A stretch of 60,259 nt of DNA, counting the filler, from Aduncisulcus paluster (taxonomy: Eukaryota), in the NCBI GenBank assembly GCA_024181965.1. It is 5 parts of 5 records of this genome, joined end to end, with 100 filler letters (N's around TTAATTAATTAA, not from the genome) between each part and the next. Parts side by side here need not be neighbours in the genome. Positions count along the whole stretch, not along the records: positions 50,421 to 60,259 come from BQXS01010825.1; 4 more parts are not named here. One strand, 5' to 3'. Shown here piece by piece: positions 11,941 through 60,259 of this stretch (position 1 is the stretch's first letter; each line of letters starts with the position of its first letter). The notes beneath the pieces are model-generated. The model had not been told where the DNA came from. It saw nothing but the letters and a program-made list of their open reading frames with translations, and did no database searches. The translations under genes were made by a program, and so were the position numbers.

Positions 11941-13321
11941 ATGGGAGGTTGTCAATCAGCCCCTATCGAAGTATGTAGATAATCACTGGGTTTTTATTTA
12001 TATTGTGAAGGTTATTGGTTTATAATCATGTATTTTACAATTATTTTCTATCATTATTATGTATTTACAAATATTCATTTCTTTTTCTGCTATCTTTTCC
12101 ACTTTTCTAGGAGAGTGTCAGATCTCTGGAAAGAGTCCATGGCTTCTCTCGTAAACCACCACTATCCCGTGAAGATCCCGCCATATTAAAAATATCGATC
12201 GAAGAAGCGACCGGATCCGACGAACAACATCCTCCAGAATCCCCCAGTTTTGATGTTTCAGCTAGTGTCCGAAAGATGTTAGGAGGCGTTGGAACCGCGA
12301 CTGCCTCGAACATTTCACTCCCCTTCTGTTCTGTTTGTAATATTAAAGGTGTATATGTGAGTGTTGAGGACTCTTATGATCCTCAATATGAGGTAACTTT
12401 CACCCATTCCGATAAATCGACTTCTGTGAGGAGATATTGCTCTGATTCATCGATGAGACGTGGCGAATGGTACTTCCTATCGGTATCCGCTGATGATGTC
12501 ATTCATTGCACTATCCGAAAGAATTATCCTGATGGTACAATAGTCAATTCTCCTGGGTTTAGAGGATTATTCTTCGTCAGGAATGAAACACCAGCAGAAT
12601 TAAAGGAAAAGGAAGAAAGAAAAACAATAGAAACAGGTGTATGTTGTTTATTTGTATTATTATTTATAATATTTTTGATTTACCACCAATCAATTCATTT
12701 TTTTTTCATTTCTCAACTTGTGTGTCTTTTATTCCGGCAATGTAGAAAGGAATTAGAGCCGTATATGTACGGGAAGGAGACCGTTCCTCCCCCCCAGTTC
12801 CCTCAGGAGACCCCTCAATAATCAGGATAGATCGAGGCAAGATTTGTGGTCGAGATGAGAGTGAAGGCACTGGTTCAGTTTATTATGACAGGTCTGAACT
12901 GGCGAGAGAAATGGTCAAAGGAGTTCAAGATGTCCCTTTCTCGCATCTCACACTCCCCTTTGTCTCTTCCACCCATCTGGAAGGTGTCTATGTCTGCATT
13001 GACCAATTGGCAGGCCCTCCGCATCTTCTTCTGACCTTTATCAACACGAAAGGAGTGAAGATATTCAAGAAGTACATGTTTCTCCAGCCCACTGATTTCC
13101 TCGAGTGGTTCTATATGCCTGTCGACCTGGATGATATTGTGTCCTGCACGATTGAAGGGTGGGAGATTTGGGAGGACAGAGTCCGAGAGCGAGAAGAGTC
13201 GCAGCGAAGGAATTCTTTTGAAACATCCATGCTGTTGAAGTCAGATGTTAGAGTCTTAGAGAAGAGTGGCTATTCATGGCTCGAAGGAATCATATTTGTT
13301 AAAGCTTCTCCTCCACCCTGA
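11941..13321 (+). CDS. Three-exon protein with N-terminal MGGCQS acylation motif and two copies of the repeat module also found on the kinase at 53621 (exons 11941-11970, 12111-12638, 12746-13321)
   Basis: Introns 11971-12110 (GTATGT...CTAG) and 12639-12745 (GTATGT...GTAG) are both phase 0 and join open frames. Motifs SNISLPF..IKGVY..VTFT..EWYFL and SHLTLPF..LEGVYVC..LLLTF..KKYMF..EWFYMPVDL match the kinase repeats. Confidence 0.8.
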
Positions 13322-22850: not shown

Positions 22851-22922
22851 AATGATAAAATTGATGAAATTGCCATAAAAATACGGAAAGATGAAGAATT
22901 TGAAGAAGTTGAAAGGGAAGAA

Positions 22923-28900: not shown

Positions 28901-31900
28901 TTTACTTCCATCAACTTCCTTCATGTATCCGACTATCCTTCTTGCTTCAGTCCAGTACGCATTTAGGATTTTTCAAAATCATCAAATGCAAGAGGGAGAC
29001 AAGTTCATAATTGAAAAGACTTTTCTTCAATTGATGATTGATCAAGAGTTCCTCAAATTGGTATGTATTGATAATCTCTCAGATGCTCAAATTTGCTCTT
29101 TATTGATGGCTTTTTATGTGGGAACCAATGACTTTAAAACTGTAAAAAGCACTGATCTTGAACTCACGAGCAAGACTTTATCAATAATGCTCAAAATCAC
29201 ACCTTCTTTACGAATTCTTGGCAAATATGGAATAATATCAGTCTCAATTGTTAATGTAGACAAGAGTGATGATCCCAATGAGAGAAATGGAAATCCCGAG
29301 GCTGGTCAACTGTTTATTTACCTTGACAAACATAAAATCACAAGGATAGCTTTCCAGAGATCGCATGAGTTTGGAGGAGATGGATTGATTTGTGATTATA
29401 AAGATCCTCAGTTTAAATCGTTGCGCTTGACCCCGGTTGATTTTATAAGATGTGTTTCAGTAAGTTTGTCCCAACAAGTTAAAAAGCAGAAGAAATCAAA
29501 GAAATTCGAGTCAAAGATTCTCAAATTGTCCATCCCCGCTTCTTCCATTTCTAAAGAAGCAGTTAAGCAACTTCCAAAACAATCTGTTCAAAAAATTCCT
29601 AAGTATGATTTGTATTTCCAACAAATTCCTCAAAATTTCTTCAAATTTGATCAAAGAACAAAACTCGCAAAATCTGATTTCTTGTCAATTGTTTCTCTCA
29701 TGTTTCTTGTTCCTCGTGAGAATATGATCTTCTTTGATCCTTTCCTCAAGAGTTCTCTGATCCATCCAATGCATTCTGAGATATTTTTGAATATTTCAGA
29801 GATATACAACGATTTATCCATCAATTTAACTGATATCTCCATGTCAGCAACTTCATTTGCTCAGAATTTATCTAGATGTGTCCACGATTTGCATTTATTT
29901 GATGATATTGTGTTTCCACAATACCGTATGACCTTTAATATATACCAAAAACGTGATAATATCATTGGTCCATTATGTACACACAAAGATAAAACATTTC
30001 AAGAGATAGTTTCAACTCTTTTTGGCCCAATAGAATCTGCTGAACGTATTTCTCAAATTAATCAATTGGATGAGATAATTCTCAACATTCATAAATGGAC
30101 GGTTGAGAAAATAGGAATTCATTGCTCCTCATTCGAAACTCTTGTAAAATTGTTCCAGAAATTGAAACAAGAATCGAATGAAGAAGGGCTTGAAAAATTG
30201 AAAGTGTCAGAAGAAACAAAAAAGTTGAAAACATGTATGGCCATTTTGAAAGAGAAAATTTCCGAACTTCAAATCGAGCTCAAACATTCAAGATCATTCC
30301 AGAGATTGAAAGAAATTTCTGAAAAATTGTCTAAAAAAGTTGAAAAACTTATGGAAGAAGAAAATGAAGGAATGTGTGATAATATCGCCGGAAAAATCCA
30401 AGAATTAATGTTGAAATATGAAGAAGTGAAAGATAACTTGGAAATTTTAATGATGAAATTCTCAACATTCATAAATGGACGGTTGAGAAAATAGGAATTC
30501 ATTGCTCCTCATTCGAAACTCTTGTAAAATTGTTCCAGAAATTGAAACAAGAATCGAATGAAGAAGGGCTTGAAAAATTGAAAGTGTCAGAAGAAACAAA
30601 AAAGTTGAAAACATGTATGGCCATTTTGAAAGAGAAAATTTCCGAACTTCAAATCGAGCTCAAACATTCAAGATCATTCCAGAGATTGAAAGAAATTTCT
30701 GAAAAATTGTCTAAAAAAGTTGAAAAACTTATGGAAGAAGAAAATGAAGGAATGTGTGATAATATCGCCGGAAAAATCCAAGAATTAATGTTGAAATATG
30801 AAGAAGTGAAAGATAACTTGGAAATTTTAATGATGAAATTCTCNNNNNNNNNNNNNNNNNNNNATGAGATAATTCTCAACATTCATAAATGGACGGTTGA
30901 GAAAATAGGAATTCATTGCTCCTCATTCGAAACTCTTGTAAAATTGTTCCAGAAATTGAAACAAGAATCGAATGAAGAAGGGCTTGAAAAATTGAAAGTG
31001 TCAGAAGAAACAAAAAAGTTGAAAACATGTATGGCCATTTTGAAAGAGAAAATTTCCGAACTTCAAATCGAGCTCAAACATTCAAGATCATTCCAGAAAT
31101 TGAAACAAGAATCGAATGAAGAAGGGCTTGAAAAATTGAAAGTGTCAGAAGAAACAAAAAAGTTGAAAACATGTATGGCCATTTTGAAAGAGAAAATTTC
31201 CGAACTTCAAATCGAGCTCAAACATTCAAGATCATTCCAGAGATTGAAAGAAATTTCTGAAAAATTGTCTAAAAAAGTTGAAAAACTTATGGAAGAAGAA
31301 AATGAAGGAATGTGTGATAATATCGCCGGAAAAATCCAAGAATTAATGTTGAAATATGAAGAAGTGAAAGATAACTTGGAAATTTTAATGATGAAATTCT
31401 CAAATTCGCACCACAACACCCCCAAAGGTGAATCTGATCTTGGAATTTTATGGAAAGCAATGATTTCTAAGATTAAATCTTCGAAACCCAAGAAAATAGC
31501 CCTTTTCACTCGATTCAGAAGATTATTTAATGTTCAATATTATATTTCCAAATTGACCCCCTTAAACCAGATTGATGATCCATTGCATTGTGAAGGTTCA
31601 TATTCCACGTTAAAGGCTCGAGAATATATGATGAAAACTATTAATATTCTAGAATCGATTGTTCCTCAAAAATCTTCAAATCTTCAAAAACTAAAATCCA
31701 ATTTGAATCATTTCATTGATTGTTTAATGGATGAAATTCGTAATGATGATCTTGTTCGGGCTTGTGACGCAATTCTAACTTGGCTTAAACTATGGTCTTT
31801 GAAAGGATTTCTTGATGAATTGAAGAAATATGATTTTTCGAAATCAGTTTTGAATCACTTTCAATCATTCCTTTCTCTAGCAAAAGAAATTAGAATTCAT

Positions 31901-34900
31901 GACACCTCCATCATGTCATGTTCTTATGAGTTTATCATCAATCCTCCCTCCGATTTGAATATTCGGAATATGCTTGGATTCTTTTCAAAACCCTTATTTG
32001 AAAATCCAAAGGCCAAATTTATCCCCAAAAGACTCGGATTAGGAGATTTTGATTCAAATATAGATTCTAATATAAATTATTTGAAGAATTTATATATAGA
32101 ATACTCGGATATACTTGCAAAAAAATTGAAATTTGAGGAATCTGACCCTTGTTCAATGTCAAATCCAAAACATAATACGCTTATTCAGCTATTCTGTATT
32201 GAAACCGATGTTCCTTTTGAAAATGTTAATGTTGATCCATCCAAATTCGAACCTGTCAGTTTCCCACTAACATATATTGTTTTGCGGGCTATTTCAAAGC
32301 AATATCACACCGATCTTTCTATTTCTACTCTTCCAAAAAGTCACACCGATCCACCTCTTCCGTTATTCGTTAAAGACTTTGCACGATCAGTTTTACTCGA
32401 ATCTATTGAGGCTTCTCCAACAAAGTCAACATGTATGGATAGAATCAGTGGAAATAGCGATGTTCTTTTGCTTTTCTCTTTGTTCAAAGGCCAGGCATTT
32501 GTGAAATCGAAAGATTTATTTATTTATGAGTTGATAAATCAATTATCTGAAGCTCCAAAGAAATCTTTATCAAAATTGGAGAGAGATAATGGAAAGTTTA
32601 ATCACCTTGTAAGGAACTTTTTATCACATGAATCTGGAAGAATGTTCTTCAGAATGCGAGAAAATTTGGAATATATAATTAGAAATCCCCAAATTCTTGA
32701 TGATATTAACCCTTACGGGAAACCCACAAAATCCCTAGATGAAGATCAAATGCAAGATATGGTTATATTTTCTCCCCTTGCGGCATACATCAGACAATTC
32801 AAAGAATATCTAGTGGAAAATGAAAGGGAACACCGTTGTTATATGGAGCGTCTCGATCAAAAGTTGAAGGAATTATTAACAATTTCCCAAGTTCAGAGAA
32901 AAGTAATCCAAGAATTTCAAGAATCTGTAAAATCCAATTTTGAAATATGGTCAAAAGAATTATATGACCGAGAAAAGGAAAGATTTGATGAAGATCGCAC
33001 GCAGAGAGAGTGGATGAATATTATCGGATCTTTGAAGGCTATCAAGGATGTTTGGGATGGAATGAAAGAAGAACTCGGAACATATTCATTCAATGTTACG
33101 TGTAATGTTGATAAAGATGGAAAATTTAATGCTCATGCATCAGTCATTTCCTTGGGAAGGATGAAAAAGGCTTTCAATACAGTTAAATCATTTCTCTCGT
33201 TCCTTTCCAGATCTCGTGCAAAGCTCCAGTCTGTTATAACTCTTTCAAGTGATCCGTTTTGTACTCTTAAAACGATTCCATCTATTCTAGAAACTCTCTC
33301 ACGACATTTCCGTGACATTCCTAAGCGTGAATACCGTTTCCTATGTATTCATGTGAAGGAAAGATGTAGCAAAATCACTGTCCAATTTAAGAAATCCAAT
33401 GTCACCTTTGAAAACAAGGCTGGAGATATTCCAAACCTTATTTTCATAATTCCCGTGAATATGAAGAATACTGAGTTTCCAGAAGTATCCCCCAAATCTG
33501 CGGAATTATGTTGGATCACTGTTCCTCCCTTTTATTTTGAAAGTGACTCATTATCATCAATTGAGACTGTAGAACCCAAACAACTTTCTGTTCCTCTTGA
33601 GTTTTATCCAATTTTGGAAAGACAATCATTGCTCGATTACTATTCTAAATTCATCAAAACTTTTGAAATCTATGAGAGTTTCACGAAAGATTGTGAGTTA
33701 CATCTTCCCTATGATATTGGCAATATTGAAAAATGTGAAAATACTCTAAGACATCTTACCAGTGAAAAAGGGAAGCTTGAAAACATTGTACGTAATCTTT
33801 CAACAGCAAGAGATAGCATAAAAGATCCTTCAGAGCATCAATTTGAAGTATTTCAATTGAAATCTTCAAAATCATCCCCAATTCATATCGATACATCAAA
33901 AATAGAGTCAAAGATTCAGGTTATCGACGGCAAATTTAATTGTAAATCAGTATTAATTCCCATAATTGAACCTATATTTAGCTGCTATCGATTCCTTGAG
34001 GAAGAATCACTCTGTTCGATTTTAATACACAATTCACAAGATTACTCAAATATCACATTTTCCCATCAACCTAGATCCGATTCAATGATCTCTCTTGATG
34101 AAGAGGAAAAAGAAGAGGATGAAAAAGAGAAGGAATCTGTTACTATTGACCCAGAAAGATTTTTCTCTCTTTCTCAAAATTTATCAAAAAGGTCCAAATC
34201 AAATAACATTGAAATTTTAATTCAGTTCAATGGATGTGAAGTTCCTGCAATAGATTCTGAGAAACTAATTGAGGAATATCATGCTCTAAAAATAGAATTC
34301 CCTGATCATACATCTGCTATTCTTCCAATTAAGATTCAGTCGAAAATAGTTCCAAATATTGTTTCGCTTTGCTTTGAATCTTCCTCAAAAACGTTTGGAA
34401 TGAAAGATAACAAAATTATGTTTGAAGGCGATTTGCCATTGAAATTCAAAATCTCTCGGCCTGAGGGATATTTGCCCGATATTTTTAGATTTTACGCTGA
34501 TGTTTCTCCAAATATTGGGAATTTCTATCCTCAATGCGTGTGGACAGTTAAGACTGATATTGTTTCCATAAAACCTAAACAAGAGTTAAAATATGGAAAA
34601 TATTTATACATTAATTCCATTTCTTCTTGTTCTCTTCCCAATATGTCCATTAAAGGTGCGATCTCAAAGTCAAAGAGGATAGTTTTATGTGGGATATATG
34701 AAAAAAAAGGATATTACAACTATAAATTTGAGGAATTGAAAAAAATATCGTGTTCAACTTATAGTGGATATAAATGGTTTAAGTTATTTATGTATAATGG
34801 ATTGGATGAAGATCATAAGTTTATGATACGTGCTGAATCTAAAGATCTTAAACCAGCAATATACATGTTCAAAACAGATTTTGTTAAGAAAGGTGAATGG

Positions 34901-37900
34901 ATAGAATTTAAGCTAGAAATTTATGTTCCTTTCACTTATTCCTCAACCATGAAACAGTATAATTTGAAGTTTCATATTGAGTATGGAAATAGTGATCCCA
35001 TTCATTTTGATATTCCTGTCATTTCAGAACCCCATTCTGGATCAAATCCTATGAATTGGACACCTCGACACCATTTTGATTTAGAAAAGGAGAAATCCAA
35101 TCTTTTGTCTCATCTTTTGCAAACCGAAAAGAAATCCTCATCTCCTAAATCCAAACAATCTGATTTCTCTGGAGCTTCCCATCCTCATTCTTCTCAAAAG
35201 AAGTATTTTAGGAACAAAAAAGAAATATCAAAAGAAGAATTTGAATCTGAATCCTCAAAAATTTCTCCATGTGATTCGAGTGGTTTTTCCAAATATCCCA
35301 AACTTGAACTCGCCAAACAAAGAGATTATTCCCTTCCAAATCCATCCATTTCCATTCAAAAGCTCGAAGAGAAACGATCACCAAAATTATTGAGAAACAT
35401 TCAAGGAATTTATGAATTTTGGAATGAATTGGACCATTTCATTGGAAAGATTGATGAGTATGTTTCATGTATCCAGATCTTTGATTCAGATGAAGAAAAG
35501 AAGAAATATATTGACCAACTTGAGGAATTGTTTTTGTATATTCAACAAATATGGGTTCGTTCATCTGTTGCTCAATGCCCCATAAAATCAATCCTTGACC
35601 AAAAGATTGCAACCTCAAAGAAAAAAGTTGATGGAATTGTTTCAAAGAGTTCACCTAGTCATGTACAGAAAAACTCTATTCTTTCCCCTTGCAAGCGTAT
35701 TTCCTCTGGATTAATTGAACTCTCCAAGTCAAATAATGCAAGTTCTGATGTTGTTGATCCAACAAACCACAAAGATAATTCCATATCTTCCTCTAACTCC
35801 CAAGGTCCATCAAAAAGTCGTATTAATTCCAACATTCGCATGGATGGTTCAATTAGTTCCAAAGTTGTCGGTGGAAGTTTATCAATTCGAAGCTCTCAAC
35901 TGTCAAGATCTCTCGGAGGAGATTCAAAAACGCGATCAATTCACGCGAAAGACACAAAATTATTCAGGATATCAAGACCTTTCAAACCTTCTGAAAGTGA
36001 AAAAGAAGCCCTTAAGATGTTTGATCAAAGTCAGTGTTTTTCTCTTGATGTATTGCAAAAATTGACAAAAGAACAAGAGGAAATAATTCGTGACTCGAAA
36101 GATATTTCACTCAAAACCACAGTCAATGAAAGTGTTTCCATAATTCGAAGTGATTCTTCCTCCAAGAATCCGCAAACTCCCGATGAATATTATGCTCGAA
36201 CATTATCAATTCTCAGTGAAGTTCAGACTTCAGAGGAAGATGGAGTTCCTTGGATTGTCAAACGTTCCTTGGATCAAACAGATATCAAAGGCAAAAAGGA
36301 ATTAGTTTCTTTGATCTCTTTTAATGATGATGATGATGAAATTGAGGCAGATAGTTTTGAGAATGTTCGTTCTATCATGAAATATGTCCAACCGATGGTG
36401 GACAAATTGGTTGGACATGTCTGTCAGCAAAGAAAAGATGGCAAAATAACATTCGATTCAACTGATGTTGTGTTGGCAATTGATACTCACAAGTTTCTCA
36501 AAGACGAAATCCACTCTGTTGTGCTGATGGTTTTCATATATTCATGTGTTTTACATCATCTTGAGCAACGATATTCAATTGTTTTGTTCGGGGATCATTA
36601 CCATCAGTTTGTTGTGAAGTCTATCCATGAACCCCATTCAGATGAAGCCTTACAACGTTTTATCGATGCTTTCACTGCTGCAAACTGTCTGATCACATTC
36701 CCTCTCGATTGTTTCAGTTTTATTGAGACAAAATGTGGATTTGGCAAGATTGGAGAAGAAGAAGAAAAAATGGGAAAAGAAGAGGGAAGAAGAAGGAAAA
36801 TGTGACTGGGAATCCTCCTCAAACTCCGGTTTTTCCACCATTCTAATTAGTTCGTGTCTGTCTCTTCATGTCGTAAATTCAAATTGCCATTTTGGGGGGG
36901 AATACGATTGGAATAAGATATTTACTGGGAATTCTCTTGACATAATTGTTGTTAATCTTCTCCAAGAAGAAAAGAATAGGTCTCATCTTGAAGCATGTCT
37001 CTCAAAAATCCCAGCTAAATCTGAAACTTCCCGTCGAATCCGATATCATTCGCTTGATATCAGTGATATTCGTAAAATGTTCTTTGAAAAAACGGATTTA
37101 ACAAGATTCCAGAAATGTGATCCTTTGAGTAGAATTTTATGTTATTCGATACATCGTGAACTCAAACCAAAGATCGAAATTGAAGCAATTTCAAAGGATT
37201 TGATTGATACTTTCATTGAATCATGTGCCAGCGATTTGTCGAAAGGAATTTCCATATCTTCTCCAATATTTTCTAAATTTAACCATAAAACCATGTCTAG
37301 AATTAGCAAAGATGTGGATATCTCATTTATAAATAGCGATTTATCAGTGATCAAGCCAGTGTTACCATTAATTAGAAGTGATGTGCTTATCCTACCCAAA
37401 GAAGAAGATCTTCACCAAATAACTATAGAAATGACACTTCAAGATCCAATCAAAGCTCTCCCTTCAAGATTATTTCAGCTCTCTCCAGCTCACATGNNNN
37501 NNNNNNNNNNNNNNNNATATCTTCTCCAATATTTTCTAAATTTAACCATAAAACCATGTCTAGAATTAGCAAAGATGTGGATATCTCATTTATAAATAGC
37601 GATTTATCAGTGATCAAGCCAGTGTTACCATTAATTAGAAGTGATGTGCTTATCCTACCCAAAGAAGAAGATCTTCACCAAATAACTATAGAAATGACAC
37701 TTCAAGATCCAATCAAAGCTCTCCCTTCAAGATTATTTCAGCTCTCTCCAGCTCACATGATCTTCTTGAACACTCAAGCTGCTCAACTTGGAAATTCTAT
37801 TAAACCAAACAAGGCCACATCCATGATTTCTTCAAATTCAGGGACTGAGATTGATTTCCACAAGTTATTTATGGCTCTGATGGGAAGTATGGAGACGAAG

Positions 37901-40549
37901 ATTTTCAAACGTAAGGCTGGAAATAAGATTAGAGTTTATTCGATTTCCCTGGTTCTTGATTTATCTCCCAGTACAGTTTGTTCAACAAATCTCTATCATA
38001 CTATTTTTACTTTCATCTTTGCACTGAACCTTCTTTCACGTCTCACCATCCCCCATGTTGATGTGATCATTTGCAGTGACAGACCCTATCTTGTACACAA
38101 AGATGCAAAACCAGAGACCATTCTAAAACCATCCTCAGATCTATGGCTCGCCCTAGGGTATGCAGTGTCTGTTGCAACAATGTATGGTGGCGATTCACTC
38201 GCCAAAGGAATGTTAATGGCACTCACTTTGCAATCATATCGAACATGTCCCAGTGTACTATATTCTCCAGTTTCTCAGAAGTCAATCTGGTGTTTTACCG
38301 ATGGAAATATTGGACCTCTACCCCGTTGTCTCATTCATTCTTGTCAACATCGAGCTTATATTGTTGACATTGATGTGATTGGGATTGGACTTGGAATTCA
38401 AGGATCTATATGTCTTGAATATGCATTCCAAAGATGCTGTTACTCTGTGAATCCCGAAGAACTCGGAGAAGCTATCGATTGCATGTATAATCCGAAAACG
38501 AACAAATACAAAAAACCGCATTTCATGATTAGATGTTCAGAATTTCAAGATATTGGGGATATCAAGAAGATAATTTCATGTAAACCTCGGAATTCATACT
38601 TGGCAGATTCTGTTAAAAGGCATTGTAGATCTGTTAATACTTGGTTTGGAGGAGATAGATTAAATCACAAAGCCTTTTCAAAGGATGCCATTGGCGAGGG
38701 AGGTTCCGGAAATATCGAAGATGCTGATGCTTATCGAGATGGTGCTTTCGAGGGTTTCTCGATTCTTGTCTGTATGTTTTATTCCAATTCCGATCGTTCC
38801 AGTGTTGATGCAAATATCTCTGAAGATGTTTTTAGAAATGGTTTGAAAGGCGGTGCTTCTCCTTTCAAATCAATGCAAAGGAAAGGATTTTCAGTCACTA
38901 TTGTAAAAACCTATTCATCTGCCATCAAAGAGCTTGACAAAGGTTCTCATTGTGTTTGTATGGTGTTATCGAGTGCCGGGTTCCAAGACAGCGTATCTGA
39001 TGGAAAATATGCCCAAGAATTCATTCGTTGTTTGAATTTGTATTGGCAACAGGGTGGATGTTTGTTCTTGTTTGGAGAGAACGATCCTTTCTTCTTTGAA
39101 GTTAACATGTTTCTGGCTCAAGCCAAATTTGAAACAGAAAGAGGAATCAGATCATGTGGATTCAAATTATACGGAAATTGGGAAGGAGCCAAAAGATCCA
39201 AAACATGGATTGAAGACAAAGGAGCATCAAGTTCTATGCTCTCGAGAGGTACATTCTGTGCACAAACATCAATTCGTGTTGGAAGGAGACAAATTCCAGC
39301 AGTTCGAGGGGGATTGCGAAGAATTTTCGAAGGCAATACGATTGCAATGTTCAGTGAACATTCTGAGGAGAAAATGTATCCTTTTGTTCCATTTGCCATN
39401 NNNNNNNNNNNNNNNNNNNTTGGAGAGAACGATCCTTTCTTCTTTGAAGTTAACATGTTTCTGGCTCAAGCCAAATTTGAAACAGAAAGAGGAATCAGAT
39501 CATGTGGATTCAAATTATACGGAAAGTGGGAAGGAGCCAAAAGATCCAAAACATGGATTGAAGACAAAGGAGCATCAAGTTCTATGCTCTCGAGAGGTAC
39601 ATTCTGTGCACAAACATCAATTCGTGTTGGAAGGAGACAAATTCCAGCAGTTCGAGGGGGATTGCGAAGAATTTTCGAAGGCATTACGATTGCAATGTTC
39701 AGTGAACATTCTGAGGAGAAAATGTATCCTTTTGTTCCATTTGCCATGAACACGAGTTCGGATACTTCCAAGCAATCACCCACAATTGCTTATTACATAG
39801 CGAATCCCGAAAGGACAAAACAAGGAAGCATCATTATTGACACAGCTTTCACAAAACTCTTCCAAGATTATGGTGAAGATGGAACTGCAAGGTGGATTAT
39901 TAATGCAGTTGGATTTTTGGCCGATAGATTCATTGAACGAGATTATGATTCATCATGTGAGAGTTCAAGCATTCTGAAACCTCTTGGATTTCGCCACAAT
40001 CTATTTGCCACCTTTTCAAAGTTTACTCCAAAGGCATCAATTGGTCATGCACGTGTGCATTCTATCTTGATGCTTGATCATTCTGGTTCAATGAGAGGAA
40101 GTATGGGTAATTTACAAGATGCAGTGAATTCTTATTGTCATGAAAGAAGGAGAATGGGTGGAGATGAATATCTGACCGTTATTATGTTCCAAAGTTCTGC
40201 AACCTTACTTTACAGACAAATCAGATTATCATCAATCTCTCATGTTCAATTACCCAGGGCTGGAGGAGGTACAAGTTTTGCTCCTGCAATTCAGATGGGA
40301 AGGAGTATGATTTTATCAAACTTTTCCAATGTGTTTATTTTATTCACCGATGGAGATAATGGCGATCACCCAAGTACCCTGTCTGAAGTAAGATGTCTCA
40401 AGGGGCATAATCATGTTCTTCATACGATTGGAATTGGTGGAGAAGGCCATTTGCGAGAATATGCAAGTCAAACTGGTGGAAGATATCAATGTGGAAGTGC
40501 TACGGGACTTATTAGTATATTTACCAGTCTGGCCCAATTTGTTTGTTAA
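22923..40549 (+). CDS. Giant midasin-like AAA+ ATPase with multiple vWA domains, ~5,360 aa after removing assembly duplications and one +1 frameshift; probably 5'-incomplete
   Basis: Four AAA modules (GEAMCGKSS at 23337, GETSYKSK at 24324, ESAPGIGKS/ILFDETN at 25767, GSSGSGKS/FLLDNL..ERLNSLIE at 26796); long helical linker; vWA-type segments DVVLAIDT, YSISLVLDLSPS..FTDG and MLDHSGSM..GGGTSF..FTDG. The ORF-track pieces join in frame once 938, 1, 263 and 348 nt are removed (16,077 nt). Confidence 0.8.
30078..31400 (+). repeat. Identical 380-bp tandem copies plus a 144-bp partial copy around a 20-N gap (likely assembly artefact)
   Basis: CTCAACATTC occurs at 30081, 30461 and 30875. Junctions fall on microhomologies AATTCTCAA and TTCCAGA, and the 380-bp period breaks the frame. 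Confidence 0.85.
37254..37759 (+). repeat. 243-bp duplication flanking a 20-N gap (unmerged overlap)
   Basis: 37254-37496 reappears at 37517-37759. Confidence 0.9.
39072..39747 (+). repeat. 328-bp duplication flanking a 20-N gap (unmerged overlap, two mismatches)
   Basis: 39072-39399 reappears at 39420-39747; the copies differ at AAT/AAG and AAT/ATT. Confidence 0.9.
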
Positions 40550-41457: not shown

Positions 41458-41557
41458 NNNNNNNNNNNNNNNNNNNNNNNNNNNNNNNNNNNNNNNNNNN
41501 NTTAATTAATTAANNNNNNNNNNNNNNNNNNNNNNNNNNNNNNNNNNNNNNNNNNNN
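41458..41557. other. Artificial contig spacer
   Basis: N44-TTAATTAATTAA-N44. Confidence 0.97.
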
Positions 41558-50320: not shown

Positions 50321-50420
50321 NNNNNNNNNNNNNNNNNNNNNNNNNNNNNNNNNNNNNNNNNNNNTTAATTAATTAANNNNNNNNNNNNNNNNNNNNNNNN
50401 NNNNNNNNNNNNNNNNNNNN
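50321..50420. other. Artificial contig spacer
   Basis: N44-TTAATTAATTAA-N44. Confidence 0.97.
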
Positions 50421-50421
50421 C

Positions 50422-51738
50422 TTCAAGACCACCGGAACTGTCCTTGACGAGTGTTTCCCCTACCCTGAGGAGACCTACCTTCTCGGAATTGTCCCTGCCT
50501 GTCCCACCACCTGTACCGATGGTTCTTCCCTTGTTCACTACAAGTCTACCGAGACCTTCGCTGTGACTGGTGTTGACAACATCATGGCTGAGATTTACAA
50601 CAATGGTCCCGTTGAGGTTTCCTTCAACGTCTACTACGACTTCGAGGTTTACACCAGTGGTATCTACGAGCACACCTGGGGTCCCTACATGGGAGGCCAC
50701 GCTGTTAAGGCTGTTGGTTGGGGTGTTGAAGACGGTACTGACTACTGGATCATCGCCAACTCCTGGGGAGCTGACTGGGGAGAAGACGGTTACTTCCGTA
50801 TTGTTAAGGGTGTTAACGAGTGTGGCATTGAGGGTAATGTTACCGCTGGTACTCCCGACCTTGACCACATCGGTGCCTCTGACGCCGCTCTCCTCCAAGA
50901 TGCTGAGAAGATTGCTGAGCACAACGCCAGCAACTCCAAGTGGACTGCCAAGATGTACGACCGTTTCCAGGGCCTGACTATTTCTGAAGCCCAGAAACTC
51001 CTCCGTACTTCCACTGAGCGTCCTGTTCTCCCCGTCAAGCGTCACTTCATGTCTGCTGATGCTCTTCCCGACTCCTTTGAATCCACCACTGCCTGGCCTG
51101 GACTTATTGGAGGTATCCGTGACCAAGGTGAATGTGGTTCTTGCTGGGCTTTCAGTTCTTCTGAAGTTCTTTCTGACCGTTGCGCCATTGCTCGTGGTTC
51201 CAACTTCGTTGAGCTTTCCCCTGAGTACCTTGTCTCTTGTGACACAGCTAACGATGGCTGTAATGGAGGTAACCTTGACTTCGTGTGGGCTTTCTTGAAG
51301 AACACTGGAGATGTCACCGAAGAATGCTTCCCTTACGCTGATGTCACTTATAATGACGGTGAGGAGCTTCCTTGTCCTACTACTTGTGATGATGGCTCTG
51401 CTTTGACCTTCTACAAGGCTTCCAACTTCTACAACGTTGACTCTAACGAGACTTCCATCGCCACCGAGATCATGAACAACGGTCCTGTTTCTGCTGCCTT
51501 TAACGTCTACCAAGACTTCTACTCCTACACCAGTGGTATCTACGAGCACACCTGGGGTTGGTACATGGGAGGTCATGCCATCAAGATTGTTGGTTGGGGT
51601 ATTGAGAGCACCACCAAGTACTGGACTGTTGCCAACTCTTGGGGAGCTGACTGGGGAGAAGATGGTTTCTTCCGTATAGTCAAGGGTGACAACGAGTGTG
51701 GTATTGAATCCGCCGTTGTTGCTGGTCTCTGTGCCTAA
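50422..51738 (+). CDS. Cathepsin B-like (C1A) cysteine protease with at least two tandem protease domains; 5'-partial
   Basis: First partial domain has GGHAVK..ANSWG..NECGIE. An internal propeptide (WTAKMYDRF.GLT) follows, then a full domain with IRDQGECGSCWAF, GCNGG, GGHAIK, ANSWG. Strong C/T-ending codon bias. Confidence 0.93.
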   Translation, partial: FKTTGTVLDECFPYPEETYLLGIVPACPTTCTDGSSLVHYKSTETFAVTGVDNIMAEIYNNGPVEVSFNVYYDFEVYTSGIYEHTWGPYMGGHAVKAVGWGVEDGTDYWIIANSWGADWGEDGYFRIVKGVNECGIEGNVTAGTPDLDHIGASDAALLQDAEKIAEHNASNSKWTAKMYDRFQGLTISEAQKLLRTSTERPVLPVKRHFMSADALPDSFESTTAWPGLIGGIRDQGECGSCWAFSSSEVLSDRCAIARGSNFVELSPEYLVSCDTANDGCNGGNLDFVWAFLKNTGDVTEECFPYADVTYNDGEELPCPTTCDDGSALTFYKASNFYNVDSNETSIATEIMNNGPVSAAFNVYQDFYSYTSGIYEHTWGWYMGGHAIKIVGWGIESTTKYWTVANSWGADWGEDGFFRIVKGDNECGIESAVVAGLCA

Positions 51739-52092
51739 GCTTCAAGCTTAACAAGTTGTGTTATTGTGATTTGATGTGAATGTTCGTGTTTTACTCACTT
51801 TTTTTTTATTAATAACCTGGTTCTCTCTCTCGTTTCTTAAAAAAAAGAACAGTTCTTCGATAACCTGTTCTACTGTATTGTCAATGTGACGTTTCTAAGA
51901 ATGCATTTTCTTGTAATCTATTTTAATTTTAAAATAAATCTAATTGATATCTAGAACAATTATAATAATTTTCTGATGTTGAAATGAAGAAATAACTGCA
52001 AATAAGTTGTGATTACCAAAACATGTTTTGTACTACGGTTGGGTGAATTAAAACTAAACATTTATTTTAAAAAATATATTTAATCTAATTAT

Positions 52093-53253
52093 ATGGACGG
52101 ATCACTTAAAACAGTTGTTATTGACCCAGGTTCTTCTTGTGTAAAGGTTGGGTTTTCTTCAGACAATACCCCCGTGAGTATATTTAATAATGTTACTGGA
52201 AAATCGAAACATCCATTAATTTCCTCAGGAATGGGTGGAAAAGATGTATATGTTGGCGATGAGGTTCTCTCCCAGCAGAGAATTCTTGATATTAAACGTC
52301 CTGTTCAACGAGGCGTTATTGTTGATGAAGAATTACTTGTCCAAACATTTGTACATTCATATGAAAAGAGTTTAAAAGTTGATCCAATCTCCCACCCACT
52401 CCTTCTTGCTCTTCCTTCCCTTATTGGGAAAACTGTGAAAGAAGATCTTACTCAACTTCTATTTGAAGAGCTATCTGTGCCTTCCTTATCGATGTGTCTT
52501 GGTCCAGCCCTGTCAGTCTTTGCAACTGGGCGTACATCTGGTGTGGTTGTCGATATTGGTGGTGGATGCACTGAAATCATACCAATGGTCGATGGAGTTC
52601 CGCTATCTCAGTCATATTGTAAGGTTCAGATGGGAGGAATGGATCTAACGGAGAGACTCGCCAGAGATATCATAGCCTCCACTGAACGTCTTGATTTCCC
52701 TTCTCTATCTTCTTCTCCTTCCTTATTCGACATTTATTCCAAGATGAAAGAAGATAGTTGTTATGTATCAATGAATTTTGAGGCAGAACTCCGTGCAACT
52801 GCACATTCAAAAGATCACTCTGCTATCCACCGTTCCCACGTGTTCAAGCTACCCGATGGAAAAGAAATAACGATGGACAAAGAGCGATTCCTCTGTTCCG
52901 AAGGTCTATTTCATCCCTCAATCCTTGGTAAAGAGAGTGCCGGTATTCCAGAGCTTGTTGCTGGTGTCGTGAGTGAAGTAGGTGTTGATGTAAGAAGCAG
53001 AATGTGGTCTAGCGTTATTCTGAGTGGTGGAACGACACTTTTACCACGCTTTAATGAACGTATGGACACTGAACTGTCTGAACTGAGTAATGGAAAGAAA
53101 GTTAGCATCGTGGCCAATGAGAATCGACTCATTTTGAATTGGATGGGTGGATCTCTTGTTGCTTCTCTGCCAACTTTCAGAGATTTATTCGTGTCAAAGG
53201 AAGAATACGAAGAAATAGGGCCCAGTATTTGTCTAAAGAAAGGTTTCTTCTGA
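52093..53253 (+). CDS. Actin-related protein (divergent, not conventional actin)
   Basis: VVIDPGSSCVKVGF, VYVGDE, GRTSGVVVDIGGG, FKLPDG, ERFLCSEGLFHPS, ILSGGTT, WMGGSLVASL, SKEEYEEIGPSI. Confidence 0.9.
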   Translation: MDGSLKTVVIDPGSSCVKVGFSSDNTPVSIFNNVTGKSKHPLISSGMGGKDVYVGDEVLSQQRILDIKRPVQRGVIVDEELLVQTFVHSYEKSLKVDPISHPLLLALPSLIGKTVKEDLTQLLFEELSVPSLSMCLGPALSVFATGRTSGVVVDIGGGCTEIIPMVDGVPLSQSYCKVQMGGMDLTERLARDIIASTERLDFPSLSSSPSLFDIYSKMKEDSCYVSMNFEAELRATAHSKDHSAIHRSHVFKLPDGKEITMDKERFLCSEGLFHPSILGKESAGIPELVAGVVSEVGVDVRSRMWSSVILSGGTTLLPRFNERMDTELSELSNGKKVSIVANENRLILNWMGGSLVASLPTFRDLFVSKEEYEEIGPSICLKKGFF

Positions 53254-53620
53254 ATCTGAGGCTCAGATTCAGCTGTGATTGATGGAAAGTAGATCAATAA
53301 AATAAAATCATTCTTAACAAACAACCATCTATTTATATCCCAATAAATCCCCCCAATGTATGAAATTATACACTATACACGCCATTCCGGCATTCATTTT
53401 CCTATCTCTGGAGGTCAACAATATTATCAAATATAGATGTTTTTTAGTTCACAAATTTATACATTTATATCACTCTCATGACATGGACTTCCTTGGTTAT
53501 ATTCTCAATATCGATATAATTGGAGTTTGAAACGAATTGTCCATTTTCTCCGAGTTAAGAACAATACCCATTTTTTTGAGGGGATATTTTTATTTGTAAA
53601 TTGCGGTGAAATATTATAAA

Positions 53621-56600
53621 ATGCCTCCAGGTAAAGCAAAAGAAGCACCAACAACTTCTAGTGTTTCAGAAGGCTCTCCTGCTATGGATAAGAGAAGTGG
53701 AGAGGAAACATCCGAAGAATCACCATTTACAAGTTCTAGTAGTTCAACAGATGTTGGTGTATGTTGTAATTATTTGTTTTGTTTCCTTCTAATTTCCAAA
53801 TTAGTTCTTACTCTAAAATGACAACTTTTGAACCAACAATGATTTTTTATACAAACTTTTTATAAATAGATTTATTCTGATACAATTGAGGCTCAGCCAA
53901 TTTCTCGAGCTGATCCATTTCTAGGGTTCGGTCGTACTGATATTATTCCTATCCCTCGGGATGATCCGACCCTTATTTTTGCTGAATTCGAAGATATTAA
54001 ATTGGAACATGACAAACCTGTGGGATTCCGTTTTCCAAAACCATCCTCCACAAAAGGGGCGTATATATCATTTAGGTATAATTTGCCTTCTCCCCAACTT
54101 ATTTTCAAGTTTACTTCTTCTTCAGGGGAAAAAACAACCAAACATTATACATTTTCTAGATTTAAAAGACATGAATGGTTCTATCTTCCAATCGATCTCC
54201 CTGATATTGATAGATTTGTGATGATTGTCGAAGATTCTGGAGAAAAAGCTATTAGAATCGACTCCCTTGCTTTTGTTCGAGAAGAAACACCCGAAGAATC
54301 AACTGCTCATAAATCTAAAGAAACAGCTCTTGAGAAGCTCTGGTCTGAAGCTATAGTTGTGACACCTAAATTTATAAATGAAGGAGATAGATATTCTATT
54401 TCTATTCCTCGTGATGATCCAACAATCATTGATCCTGCATATGAAATGGTGAATGGGAGTGACAATTTATATAGTAAGGAATTTCATGAATATGATAAGA
54501 GTTCAAGAGCGCAAGAAATGTTAAAGGGGGAATGTGATGTCACCTTATCTCATCTTTCCATACCTTTTCTTTCACCAAGTGCTATGAAAGGTGCTTATAT
54601 CTATGTGGTTAAAAAGTCATATATGCATGAATATGCCAGTTCACCCTCTCTTCTCTTCACTTTCACTCTTTCTAATGGTGAGAAGATACCCAAGAAATAT
54701 GAATTTTCAAAACAACCTGAACATTGGGATGAATGGCACTTCCTTCATATTGATTTATCAAATGTTGTTTTATGTGAGATTCAAGGGAAAGGAATGTGGA
54801 AAGAGAAAAACAGTCGGGTCTTTAACATCAAATCTCTTGTTTTCATCCGAGAAGAAACCTCCGAGGAACGTACTGCTCGTGAAGTGCATGAACGTTGCTG
54901 GGCAGAAACTGTATGTTTTTTATTATTTGTTTGTTCTATTTAAGTGAAACCTTTAATTTATTCACCAATCTTATGACTTTTGTGATTCTTTATTTCGTAT
55001 TTTTATTTCAATGATCATTGCTACGAATTTTAGCCAATTTCTAAGCCAGAATTCATGAACCCAGGAGATGCCAGTTTTATTCCTATTCCTCGTGATGATC
55101 CAGATATTATTAATCCTTCATTTGATTTGGTGAAGGCAAAAGATGATTCAAATAGGAAGGAATCTAGGCATTATGATCAGAGTTCTAAAGCACAGAAAAT
55201 GTTAAAAGGAGATTATTCTTTTGTTAATTTTTCTCATCTTTCCATACCTTTCCCATCACCTAGTCCCATGAAAGGTGCATATATCTGTGTTCATGAGGAT
55301 TATAGTTCACCCTCTCTTCTCTTCACCTTAACTCTTTCTAATGGTACAAAGACATTCAAGAAGTATGAATTTTCAGAACCTAAACATGAATATGAATGGC
55401 ACTTCCTCCCTATTGATTTAGAAAATGTTGTTTTGTGTGAAATTGAAGGGAAAGGAACATGGGAAAAGAAGAATAGTCGATATTTTCGTATCGAATCTCT
55501 TGTGTTCCTCAAAAGACACATATACACGAGAGAAGTTACTTTTGTTCATGAAGGAAGATATTCATGTATTCCGATCCCAAGAGACGCACCAAATATTATT
55601 GATCCTGAATTTGGAGGGATTGAGGCAAGGAATGGCACTCGTGATAGGGTGAATAGGAGTGAAAATGCCAAAAGAATGATTAAAGGGGAGGGTTTAAGAA
55701 ATTATTTCACCCATATTTCCATCCCTTTCAAATCTCCTTCCACTCCCATTAAAGGTGCTTATATATGTTTGCCAAGTTCGAGTCATGGTGCATTTCCAGA
55801 ACATCTCATCTTTACTTTCACTTCTTCTACAGGGAAAATACGATCCATTAAGTATGAATTTCCTTCCTTTGCAATGGAAAGATGGTATTTCCTTCCAGTT
55901 GATCTTTCCGATGTTGTTTTGTGCGAGATTGAAGGGGAATCTAAACGGAAAGGAGAGGAAAGATTTGAATTTTTTCTTGAATCTCTTGCTTTTGTTCAAG
56001 AAGAAACTCCTGAAGAAGAGCATACCCGAAAATCGACTGAAGTTCTGATATCAAAAATGTGGACTGAAGCTGTACGTTTGATATTTCTTTGTTTTTATCT
56101 TTGTTCTTTATTTCTTTATGTTTATTGATAACAATATATTTATCCAAATTATTTCCATTTATTTAGTCAACTATAATACCTGAGTTTATTGCAGAAGGAG
56201 ATGATGATTCCCCTCCAATTCCTCGAGATGATCCACGTGTTATCAATCCTTCATTTGAATTGGTAAAGGGAAAGAATGATTCAATGAGTAAGGAATCTGA
56301 GAAATATGATATGAGTTCTAGAGCACAGAAAATGTTAATAGGGGAAGATTATGTTTACTTATCCCATCTTTCCATACCTTTCCCATCACCTAGTCATATG
56401 AAAGGTGCTTATATCTGTGTTCAAAAAGATGATTGTTCACCTCAACTTCTCTTTACTTTCACTCTTTCTGATGGTACAAGGACATCTAAGAAGTATAAAT
56501 TCAGAAAAATTGATGAAAATCGTGAATCGAAATGGTATACCGAATATGAATATGAATGGCTCTTGCTCCCAATTGATTTACCAAATGTTATCTTATGTGA

Positions 56601-58488
56601 GATTCAAGGGAAAGGAACATGGAAAGAGAAAAACAGTCGTGATTTTGAAATTTACTCCCTTATTTTCATCACAGGTGATGATATTCCTCCTCTCCCATCT
56701 GATTCTTCCAAACTTGTCAAACATGACTCCTTCACTCTCACTTCCTCTGCAACCATCACTCCTCAGTGCATCATTGGTCAGGGCGGATTTGGTGAAGTTA
56801 TTCTTGTCAAGGTTGAAGGTATTCCCATTCCTTGTGTTCTGAAGAAGATGCTTCGGAAAGCTGATGAAAAAGTTGTCAAGACATGTCGCAAGGAATTTAG
56901 AGTTCAAAGAAAGTTGTTTAACAACCCCAAATGTTTCAATCGTATATCACGTCCTTTGTATATTCTTGATCTTCTTGATGCAGATTTGAAGGGAGTTTAT
57001 GGATTCCTTATGGAGTTTTGTATTGGAGGCAGTGTGAGTTCATTTGCAAAGAAATGGTGTGTTGTTGATAAGTCTGAAAGTCAAGGGGAAGAAGGAGAGG
57101 AAGAAGAATGCTCTTCTTCAGAAGAAGATAGTGATGATCACATAGATTTTGATCCCATGACATTAAACCCTGTGAAAGTGAGTGCCTTGTGTGTTGGAAT
57201 GATTGAATGTCTTGATGATGTGTTCACTGCCAAACCAAAACTTACTCATCGAGATATTAAACCTGACAACTTCCTTATTCGTGTTGATCCCAAAGATGGA
57301 GAATGTACTGTTGTTCTCTCTGATCTTGGATTGGTCCAGATCTTAGATTCCATATCATCTTCAACAACTACCAAATCAGGTTTGATTCAACCTATTCATC
57401 TTGATACGAAAAAGGAAACTCAAAATCAAACCCCATCTAAATGTGGAACTCTTGTGTATAATTCTTATGAAACACTTCGAGATGGCAAGCAATCTCAGAA
57501 GAGTGATGGATATTCTCTTGGAATGTCTATTCTCGCTTTATTCTTTTCTGAACATCCCTATGTTTCATTGCCATTATTCAGAGAAGTTGTTAGAAAACAC
57601 TTGGGAGATGATTTTAGGATCATGAAAACTCTTATTGATCTGATGGAAAATAGCATGTCTCCAAGACTTCTCCGATCTCCCTTGTTTAGATCTTTGAAGA
57701 CCCTTGAAGGAGGTAAATTCCAACCTGTTCATGAATGTTTGAATGAAGTGTTCACAGGACTCACCCAACTCGATGTTGACAAACGTATGAGTGTGCATGA
57801 AGCTCGCAAGAAGGTGCAAAGCATCAAACATTTACTGCCAGAGATTGGGGAAGGGTTTAAATGTCCATATGTTGAGGATATTATCAAGGAACAAAAACGT
57901 AAACATTTTGGTTCTGGAACTATTATTGGTGGTCCAATGAGTCATTCAGAAGTACAGGAATCTACAATTAAATCACATGATATTATTGATGGTAGAGATC
58001 ATGATGAGAGTGAAAAAGAGAGTGAAGAAAAAAGTGGAAGAGATAAGGAACATGAAACTCAATCAATGTCTTCAAAACTTCAAACTACATTGGATCAGAG
58101 CCCTGAAAAGGACAACAGAGATATGCCTTCTTATATGTTACATCAAGATGAGCTTGAAGGCGAAACAAGTGGTTCACATTCCATAATTACATTAACAGAT
58201 TCCATAAAAGCTTCAAAACTTCAAAGTACAGAGAAAGATACCAGAGATGTTCCTCGATATTTATTACATGAACCTGATAGAGGAACAAGTAATCATTCAG
58301 AAGTTCAAAATCCTATTATTTCTCCATGTGATATTGTTATAACGAAAACTTCTTCCAATACTTCTTCTTCTCCAAGAATTATCCAGGGGCCAGAAGATGT
58401 TTTTGACTATGATAAAGATCATGATGAGAGTGAGGAAAGGGAAAGAGATGGAATTTGTTCCAAATTATGCTGTTTCTGTGGCTTTTGA
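53621..58488 (+). CDS. Four-exon ~1,512-aa protein kinase with five N-terminal ~150-aa repeat modules (exons 53621-53758, 53870-54910, 55034-56071, 56167-58488)
   Basis: Phase-0 introns 53759-53869, 54911-55033 and 56072-56166 join the ORF-track fragments in frame. Repeat consensus IPRDDP..SHLSIPF..KGAYI..LLFTFT..KKYEF..EWxFLPIDL..CEI.G. Kinase motifs GQGGFG, VLKK, HRDIKPDN, DLG, GTLVYNSYE. Cys-rich end CSKLCCFCGF. Confidence 0.87.
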
Positions 58489-59283
58489 AAAATGGAATTA
58501 TTGGTGGTCCAGTGAGTGATTATGAAGAATCAAGTTATTCAATCCCAGTAACGAGTGAATATGATTATGATTCTTTGAGTATCTCTTCAACCAAGCAGAG
58601 TTCTATTGAATCTCGGGATTATCTTGAATCGAGAGGATTGGATAGGGAGAAAGAAGAATAATGGATATATTGATGAGTTAGAATACTGGATCATAGAGAT
58701 ATTCGCTTGTATTGGGGGATTTGAAGATGATCATCTTCATTGGGACAAAGTGGAGTTAATATGCATGAATGGAGAGAAAGGTGAATAGATCTAGATTATT
58801 GAATAAATGAGTCTTGGAACAGACCTTAAAATAGATTGAAATCAGCCTGAAATGCCGCCAAAGAAAGGATGTGGGAAACCTTAATCTGACATCAAGAGAG
58901 CAATCTACCTCGAGAGACATTCATATCATAGAAAGCGATGTTGTTAAAGGGATTGCAAAAAGCCTGGAATTGTAAAAACCTTGGATTATGACCGTTTACT
59001 AATTGATGAGAAACTGAAGAGAAAAGTTTGATTTTAACCACTGAGAGATGAAAATAATGGAAAAATAACGGCATTACAGAAATAGCTTAATTTGGGAGAA
59101 TAAATACTCTACTAAGTTCAATTAATGTTCTAATATCAAAGGATTTCTGTGATTGTATTAAAAACATGATTTCTGACTTGATATTGCCAAGAGAATAGGT
59201 TCAAGTAATCAATACAACCAGAGGTATATATAATACATATGATGTAATAGCATTATTAATATTAATATTTTTTATCCGAATTA

Positions 59284-60259
59284 TTATTCACTAATGCTAT
59301 CACTAACAAATTCATGAGGATGTAAAGTCGGATCTGGATGAGCTTCTTGGACTTCTCCTTCTCCTCTTGCAAAAGTAAGCTCTTCAACACGAGTACTAAA
59401 TGTCACACGACTGCCCTCTTTGGGGCGAGATTTATAGCCTCCCTTTGAACGAGGAGCTTCGGCAAGAGCTGCTCTCAAAGTATCATCGAGACCGGCTGCT
59501 CCAGTTCCCCGGCCCGGTTGACCGGTTGATGTCCCCTGTTGCCTTTCTCTTGCAGCTCCTGACTCACCCTGAAGTGACAACAGCATATCTTCGGTGGTTC
59601 TGATGTCATTATCATCGATAAATCCACTCCTGTTCTTTAAGAAATCAGACACAGTATCAGATCCGAGTGAAGAGTAATGATTTGTACCATAATACTCACT
59701 GCCCATCGTCACACCCGAAGATGCATGCGAATCATGAGGAACTGTGGTATCGATCACTTCTTGAGCAGATACAGATCTGATACCAGCCTCGTCTTCTTCT
59801 CCCTGTTGTCCAGAGATGTAATCATGATGCTCTTCATCCACATCTCCGTGATGTTGCATGAATCCTTCGAGATCAACCCCCTCGAGTCCCAATTCATCGA
59901 GGAGCATCTTCATCTCGGTGGCATTCTCCTCATTCTCCTCATCGCCAAGCATGAGTCCCACATCATCGGGATTGACAGTGTGCTTGTGCAAATGTTCCTC
60001 GCCTGGCTTGACAAGGAGCATTTGTTGAAGAGACTTCTCTTCTTGGATCTCAGAGTCAGTCCTTTTCATCTTGCCTGCAGTCAACGAGGAGGAGGAGGAG
60101 GAGTCACCAGTTATCGAGGTGGACGTTGGACCTTGACGCAAGAAATGAGCATAATTGCTTGCCTTTTCTTCTTCTGTCAAAGGATGATCGTGTCTCCTTT
60201 CCCCTTCCATCTCAGCCCTGTCTCTTTCCTGTCTCTCCCTATAACGCATAATGTCTTCA
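59284..60259 (-). CDS. Hypothetical acidic/disordered protein, 5'-partial (C-terminal part of a larger gene)
   Basis: At least 321 aa; the frame stays open to the window end; no recognisable motif. Confidence 0.7.
   Translation of the reverse strand, partial: EDIMRYRERQERDRAEMEGERRHDHPLTEEEKASNYAHFLRQGPTSTSITGDSSSSSSLTAGKMKRTDSEIQEEKSLQQMLLVKPGEEHLHKHTVNPDDVGLMLGDEENEENATEMKMLLDELGLEGVDLEGFMQHHGDVDEEHHDYISGQQGEEDEAGIRSVSAQEVIDTTVPHDSHASSGVTMGSEYYGTNHYSSLGSDTVSDFLKNRSGFIDDNDIRTTEDMLLSLQGESGAARERQQGTSTGQPGRGTGAAGLDDTLRAALAEAPRSKGGYKSRPKEGSRVTFSTRVEELTFARGEGEVQEAHPDPTLHPHEFVSDSISE

Follow-up and report, generated by a model that had tools for sequence, protein, structure and literature searches.

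The gene considered here lies in a window of 60,259 nucleotides (nt), filler included, from genome assembly GCA_024181965.1 of Aduncisulcus paluster, which is a free-living relative of Giardia that the available part of PMC9933649 describes as a microaerophilic flagellate of the fornicates. The window chains contigs by N spacers, across which adjacency is meaningless, and the gene under study sits on the piece at 50421-60259. Its product carries five copies of an uncharacterised module ahead of a protein kinase domain. We found that recurrent sites on the predicted binding face of the module are under diversifying selection and that the core strands and the kinase are under purifying selection.

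Four exons, spliced through GT..AG introns with every junction in phase 0, give a single frame of 1512 amino acids (aa) (Table 1). The database model P0009, an A. paluster hypothetical protein, is identical to this product over residues 1-1509 and differs in splicing out 58478-58548, thereby finishing in the family-type terminus. Contigs from run X1, which are RNA by our guess, span introns 1 and 3 exactly and carry at intron 2 the joint 54910>55046, whose acceptor keeps the frame and lies 12 nt beyond the modelled one; the contig over intron 3 has other letters and may stem from a paralogue. Since these contigs join the exons across introns 1-3, the exons make up one gene, as the initial annotation held, and not separate transcripts. 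The joint peculiar to P0009 was not among the X1 joints listed, which is no proof of its absence.

All five annotated modules were recovered with a hidden Markov model (HMM), and the annotated C-terminus, CSKLCCFCGF followed by a stop, is present. The reported lack of a hydrophobic leader or transmembrane (TM) helix agrees with a hydropathy scan, hydropathy being the only measure used, in which the highest 19-residue value (1.47) fell within the kinase. The intracellular placement draws further support from a TM-bearing relative, P0086, whose order is leucine-rich repeat (LRR)-Cys-TM-modules-kinase: its modules are cytosolic, since they are located behind the predicted TM helix. The relative L192 also has modules between an LRR-Cys-rich part and the kinase. 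A sensor role for the gene, also proposed initially, may be the right one.

The kinase domain matched Pkinase at E 1.7e-15 (PF00069, above cut-off) and retains the Gly loop, beta-3 Lys, helix-C Glu, HRD..N and D-x-G. Among paralogues, HRD and DLG were kept in 29/29 and the Lys and Glu patterns in 27/29; internal stops occurred in 5/130 kinase matches. The catalytic motifs are intact, and the enzyme is predicted to be active. Calling it a receptor-like cytoplasmic kinase (RLCK) was not supported, because the best matches of the kinase profile in the PDB were weak, at about E 1e-7 (RIPK1 1.1e-7, HRI 1.7e-7, CDPK 2.9e-7), and no chain of the receptor-like kinase (RLK)/Pelle or IRAK families, nor any Nek, occurred among the best 60 of 214. 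True RLK/Pelle members generally match solved RLK structures far more strongly.

The linker between modules and kinase varies in sequence and in length (about 20 to >100 residues) across the family, and several clade kinases bear other N-termini; this variability would fit tethered targeting better than a fixed regulatory lid. A prediction of the kinase in complex with module M5, in which alignments were not used, scored 0.00. In the clade kinases L183, L185 and L188, the preceding 850-2550 residues contained neither a Pfam match nor a module. The region upstream of another clade kinase (L184:1-1806, G000:C11098) has module-like motifs, unscored by profile, and is possibly a further divergent subfamily.

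Module fold and proposed relation to DOC domains

Module copies are about 160-170 aa long, and M1 is divergent, being without some 30 residues around the helix. The five window modules had no Pfam match even at E<=1; among 79 modules and 30 divergent proteins searched at E<=10, the only galactose-binding-like family to appear was CEP104_N (E 0.053, in 1 protein). The modules had no Pfam match of the PF00754/PF22633 type, PF03256 (DOC) matched 0/79 module members at E<=10, and the module profiles A1 and A3 had 0 sequence matches in the PDB at E<=10.

AlphaFold2, run on an alignment of 79 sequences, produced a model of M3 with a predicted local distance difference test score (pLDDT) of 94.4 and a predicted template-modelling score (pTM) of 0.88. 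The modelled fold is a galactose-binding-domain-like beta-sandwich, as had been suggested from the strand pattern. Its structural neighbours, taken from Foldseek and VIA, were led by yeast Doc1 (1gqp; Z 12.9, root-mean-square deviation [rmsd] 3.0, 143 of 159 residues aligned), the CBM32 of ZmpB (7jnb; Z 12.3, rmsd 3.0, 135 aligned) and human APC10 (Z 11.7, rmsd 3.2, 137 of 159 aligned), followed by the HECTD3 DOC domain (Z 11.3) and IFT25 (Z 11.2). In the ESM Atlas, the lectin PP2 formed the nearest cluster (0.85); recognition was low, and we take this as no more than a lead. In a search of viral folds the matches were all generic jelly-roll tail or F5/8 type C (F5/8C) domains, with identities of 7-17%, and a viral origin is therefore not shown.

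Modules often come in twos. A stand-alone two-module protein was modelled at pTM 0.86 with a linker helix between its modules, which suggests that the two-module unit is a fixed pair. None of the solved tandems compared resembled the predicted pair geometry (best TM-score 0.28, rmsd about 15).

Of the leading neighbours, DOC/APC10 domains bind proteins and CBM32/discoidin domains bind sugars. The A. paluster genome has 11 ANAPC10/DOC matches above cut-off, comprising one APC10 and about ten DOC proteins. In three of the latter the DOC domain is followed by a Pfam BTB match, and the rest have similar C-terminal parts; some of the DOC proteins presumably end in a MIB/HERC2-like region. These loci (L083-L087, L093-L098) form an expanded group, putatively of substrate adaptors for cullin-3. 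A profile of the DOC domains matched APC10 at E 4e-23 and also CUL7, CUL9, HECTD3 and HERC2. Searches for homologues of the DOC domains returned only proteins of the same species, so the DOC comparison is one of a single genome.

We built a profile from 200 divergent modules, leaving the DOC domains out, and HHalign aligned it with the 11 own-genome DOC domains at 89.7% (E 1.8e-6, 57 columns); controls gave 0.3% for 14 bacterial F5/8C domains, 0.5% for 2 CEP104_N and 0.3% for 1 PITH. In the reverse direction, a DOC HMM scored at least 5 bits in 31/200 modules and in 0/200 reversed modules, and an HMM of the 14 F5/8C sequences reached that score in 0/200 modules. We infer from these profiles that the module is DOC-derived but not a DOC member. 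The galactose-binding fold of the initial annotation stands, and for the nearest sequence relatives the profiles favour DOC/APC10 over CBM32/discoidin.

Family size and architecture

The initial annotation placed the gene in an expanded, lineage-specific family that includes the stand-alone protein encoded at 11941, on another contig of the window, and the counts bear this out. The assembly (G000) comprises 23,235 contigs, in which duplicates may inflate counts and divergent copies are missed. A module query gave 1442 first-look candidates, and all of those scored (150/150) matched. DNA patterns for the module motif KGAYIC and the kinase motif HRD[IV]KPDNF occurred at 852 and 277 places, against 9 and 0 for their controls. 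Every homologue listed (120/120, of 202) was labelled as the same species. HMMER over 1.84 billion representatives found 180 sequences at E<=0.001, 150 of them listed; 23 of the 150 were already labelled, and 117 others and the 30 unlisted were not named. Ten low-ranking matches were looked up, of which nine belonged to the same species and one was an insect repeat protein (P0237), a spurious match of 14 short stretches that was dropped before profile building. No relative outside the species was confirmed among the homologues named, and none among the pattern matches of the A1 search in GTDB genomes (42), IMG/VR (50) and JGI metagenomes (71). In literature listings, mostly of non-subscription papers, we found no paper describing this family.

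Proteins of the family contain 1 to 12 modules. The kinase motif was present in 55 of the 249 sequences examined for architecture (a count that includes the window model, its twin and APC10), and the modules lay upstream of the kinase in 53 of these 55. Two-module proteins without a kinase, such as that at 11941, are common. Linkage of the 11941 gene with the kinase gene was rejected: the two lie on separate contigs joined by N's and are not shown to be linked. Among 40 linkers scored, 12 shared the position of a phase-0 intron, 25 had no intron and 3 were unresolved, so that arrays could grow by duplication of symmetric exons.

Several architectures stand apart. The MGGC start of the 11941 protein is a possible myristoyl/palmitoyl anchor; an MG start was found in 20/249 relatives, and a CaaX-like end was seen in 3. 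In the database models P0125, P0018, P0115, P0090 and P0240, modules are combined with PARP, AAA, thioredoxin, MSP or importin-beta-like domains; these may be merged gene models. In locus L099 (G000:C107:1-8000), ten consecutive modules precede a kinase and fall into three reading frames, for which introns, frameshifts or assembly errors are possible explanations. A break in the kinase frame of the C66 paralogue was rejected as a sign of a pseudogene, as it sits at an assembly gap.

Selection and function

The ratio of nonsynonymous to synonymous substitution rates (dN/dS, or omega) was estimated from 103 modules at loci chosen, not at random, by likeness to M5 or the kinase. The expectation from the initial annotation, variable loops on a conserved core, was borne out. 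In 38 disjoint pairs, dN/dS was 0.30 in strands, 0.43 in bottom turns and 0.98-1.12 in the top loops; maximum-likelihood (ML) omega was 0.25, 0.33 and 0.95/0.81, respectively. The kinase gave 0.32 (9 pairs). So that the test would not be circular, the 12 fastest gap-poor sites were picked on one half of the pairs and scored on the remaining half; held-out omega was 1.84 [1.33-2.61] and exceeded 1 in 500/500 splits. Sites picked in one module type gave ML omega of 2.2 and 3.8 in the other, with log-likelihood gains over omega=1 of 10.6 and 23.7 (kappa fixed), and 7 of the 12 hot sites were common to both types, against about 1 expected. A further omega of 4.8 is disregarded, as its five sites were selected post hoc.

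Aromatic or polar residues are frequent at the hot sites, of which 85-87 align with the 80s loop of APC10. The 80s and 140s loops of APC10 bind the destruction box (D-box), according to the available part of PMC5717348, and in the HECTD3 DOC domain non-conserved loop residues of this region set substrate use, according to that of PMC13018541. We consider it most likely, ahead of a glycan-binding array or an address system of the Giardia kind, that the modules recruit targets; the full reading, in which DOC-derived modules under diversifying selection direct a cytosolic kinase to protein targets that vary, we put at about even chances.

In mechanistic terms, the modules would have arisen out of the DOC domain in this lineage's DOC-BTB ubiquitin-ligase adaptors, shed the pocket motifs of DOC and increased in number as tandem pairs, a process that symmetric phase-0 exons would have eased. 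Each module would use the face with which APC10 reads the D-box to bind a protein or peptide, and the presence of five would give avidity or breadth. Targets might thereby be brought to the tethered kinase, or kinases might be clustered into trans-activation, and the kinase-free two-module proteins could serve as adaptors or decoys. Least certain is the nature of the partners, which may be foreign proteins that change fast, of viral, prey-bacterial or symbiont origin; such partners would explain the diversifying selection. That the degron-reading domain of ubiquitin-ligase adaptors has been turned into >800 variable binders, reshuffled through symmetric exons and placed on about 280 kinases, forming a cell-autonomous immune recognition of foreign proteins unrelated to NLRs, TLRs and RLKs, is a speculative extension that we regard as doubtful.

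A number of observations weigh against recruitment by DOC-derived modules. The sequence link to DOC is weak: it spans few columns, and its best score is near 20 bits (for 20,000 sequences, E about 5e-4). The DOC set comes from the same genome, so that shared composition may help the match, and includes near-duplicates (L084, L093, L098). One reversed DOC sequence scored 6.6 bits, APC10 itself scored -2.7 and 2/10 other DOC sequences fell below 5 bits. A WQS-type motif occurred in 11/670 modules and a GGxDxR-type motif in 0/670, compared with 10/11 and 7/11 own-genome DOC domains. Structural scores, tied at the top, cannot split DOC from CBM32. Hot sites 148, 150 and 152 follow the APC10 140s loop in a global alignment of low confidence. 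Synonymous divergence (dS) is also raised in the loops, omega over whole loops is about 1, and tree-based omega can come out too high where paralogues undergo gene conversion. The HERC2 DOC domain bound none of the peptides tested (PMC9001736).

CBM32 domains bind sugars at the same end of the fold, and the site of selection therefore cannot tell peptide from glycan. The modules might thus form an intracellular lectin array in the manner of CBM32/discoidin, binding bacterial or viral sugars that escape food vacuoles and so activating the kinase. This is unlikely on balance, but the structural tie of CBM32 with Doc1, the PP2 lead and the aromatic or polar character of the hot sites all speak for it, and tandem arrays generally suit avid glycan binding. 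Against it, the modules lack any profile signal to the bacterial F5/8C domains, though the DOC profile does detect those domains (90.8%), and an Asp-Gly..Trp pattern was found in 11/670 modules versus 5/14 F5/8C domains.

We give an equally low probability to endogenous targeting, in which the modules would guide kinases to structures of the cell itself, as may be the case for Giardia Nek/TALM-ankyrin proteins and Protein 21.1, and loop variation would reflect relaxed constraint and rapid turnover of genes, not an arms race. A related lineage has expanded repeat arrays with or without a kinase (PMC3218828, available part), and the whole-loop omega, the other N-termini of clade kinases and the copies with stops or frame breaks (the kinase matches noted above and the C107 array) are all in keeping with it. 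Relaxation sits poorly with the held-out omega and with the same hot sites recurring in both module types, and the catalytic motifs kept in 27-29 of 29 kinases differ from the mostly inactive Giardia Neks.

The Cys cluster that ends the protein had been read as a palmitoyl anchor. It is encoded in a captured 3'-flank element that is 38/45 identical to non-coding DNA in L048 and L050 and 34/40 identical in L051, where the copies lie 212-227 nt past the stop of the nearest upstream long open reading frame. The Cys-tail pattern had 6 matches in the genome, coding in 2 (this gene and a close paralogue, in which the family-type terminus is more disrupted) and non-coding in 4; among clade kinases with a visible stop, 1/23, the window gene itself, ends in a Cys cluster. 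The anchor is thus not a general mechanism of the family. In both carriers the 54 Cys-coding nt are the same, in surroundings of 400 nt that are 87% alike, and the stretch may therefore have been co-opted recently for acylation. A relay kinase palmitoylated at this tail and acting below LRR receptors, as plant RLCKs do, is very improbable: LRR-Cys-TM kinases of the same clade (P0086, L192, L198), the Cys stretch shared by both carriers and the MG or CaaX-like ends of some relatives would suit it, but the tail is rare, is not a CaaX motif and follows a kinase that is not close to RLK/Pelle.

Several other genes of the window are ordinary ones, to judge by Pfam (Table 1). An actin-like gene sits directly upstream of the module-kinase gene. 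A nucleoside phosphorylase, to judge from its prokaryotic matches, is possibly a product of lateral transfer.

Table 1. Features of the window, with positions counted along its whole length
Feature	Position	Strand	Basis or remark
RNA polymerase large subunit	717-6275		Pfam
Class I tRNA synthetase	6637-9471		Pfam
N spacers	9473-9572, 22070-22169, 41458-41557, 50321-50420
Two-module homologue, 377 aa, starts MGGC (exons 11941-11970, 12111-12638, 12746-13321)	11941..13321	+	HMM; P0170; other contig
SMC	18988-22066		Pfam
Midasin-like AAA+VWA protein	22791-40549		Pfam
Nucleoside phosphorylase PF01048	41560-42963	-	69 prokaryotic loci, mostly 33-44% identical
Actin-like protein	52084-53253		Pfam
Exon 1: Ser/Glu-rich N-terminal leader, 46 codons	53621..53758	+	Frame; X1 joint 53758>53870
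Exon 2 (phase 0-0): M1 and M2 with linker helix	53870..54910	+	Frame
Module M1, divergent, shortened around helix	53897..54298	+	HMM
Module M2 (type A)	54353..54868	+	HMM
Exon 3 (phase 0-0): M3 and M4	55034..56071	+	Frame; X1 joints
Module M3 (type A), copy folded: predicted galactose-binding-like sandwich	55040..55516	+	HMM, predicted structure
Module M4 (more divergent, B-like type)	55529..56017	+	HMM
Exon 4: M5 with linker, kinase, tail of low complexity and stop	56167..58488	+	Frame; X1 joint 56071>56167
Module M5 (type A)	56173..56685	+	HMM
Orphan Ser/Thr-type kinase domain: GxGGFG, VLK, helix-C Glu, HRDIKPDN, DLG, acidic insert	56770..57810	+	Pfam, motifs
Ser/Glu/Asp-rich tail with short internal repeats	57850..58454	+	Sequence
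Captured 3'-flank element; frame gives Cys peptide and stop at 58488	58455..58499	+	Homology to non-coding DNA
Family-type C-terminus, ends ESRGLDREKEE, out of frame after stop	58500..58661	+	Sequence

Comparison with known systems

The closest likeness is to the DOC/APC10 domains of APC10/Doc1, CUL7/9, HERC2 and HECTD3, and of the lineage's own DOC-BTB proteins, with which the modules share the fold, including the N-terminal extension (137-143 of 159 residues aligned), a weak reciprocal profile match and variation at the degron-binding face. Unlike these domains, the modules have no PF03256 match, have lost the WQS and GGxDxR motifs, stand in tandem (1-12 copies), number in the hundreds and are fused to kinases instead of ubiquitin ligases. 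According to the available parts of PMC9001736 and PMC13018541, the DOC fold is represented by a few ligase domains, each in a single copy, and for most of these no ligand is known. If the proposed reading is true, the DOC fold can serve as a scaffold for variable binders. The question of the module's ligand is easy to put to experiment, since the modules are predicted to be small, soluble and without cysteine bridges. Little is settled about the way unicellular eukaryotes recognise foreign molecules, and a cytosolic, kinase-coupled family whose cores are conserved and whose binding faces are under positive selection would be a concrete, testable candidate.

CBM32 and F5/8C domains share the fold (Z 11-12.3) and the tandem use, but the modules are without profile signal to them, are cytosolic and have a pair geometry unlike solved tandems. 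Plant RLCKs resemble the window protein in its lack, by hydropathy, of a signal peptide or TM helix and in having LRR-TM relatives, here within the same clade; they differ in that this kinase is not close to RLK/Pelle/IRAK by sequence and in that a lipid anchor is not a family trait.

With the Nek/TALM-ankyrin proteins and Protein 21.1 of Giardia, the family shares a fornicate, lineage-specific expansion of kinases with variable repeat arrays and a kinase-free sister family (PMC3218828, available part). The window gene had no ankyrin (Pfam) or Nek match, and unlike the Giardia proteins the kinase is not a Nek by best matches, is C-terminal, keeps its catalytic residues and is joined to a predicted beta-sandwich instead of ankyrin repeats, with positive selection at sites of the predicted binding face. 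Next to the Giardia Neks, the family would give the fornicates a second and independent instance of expanded kinases with repeat arrays, this one in a free-living species.

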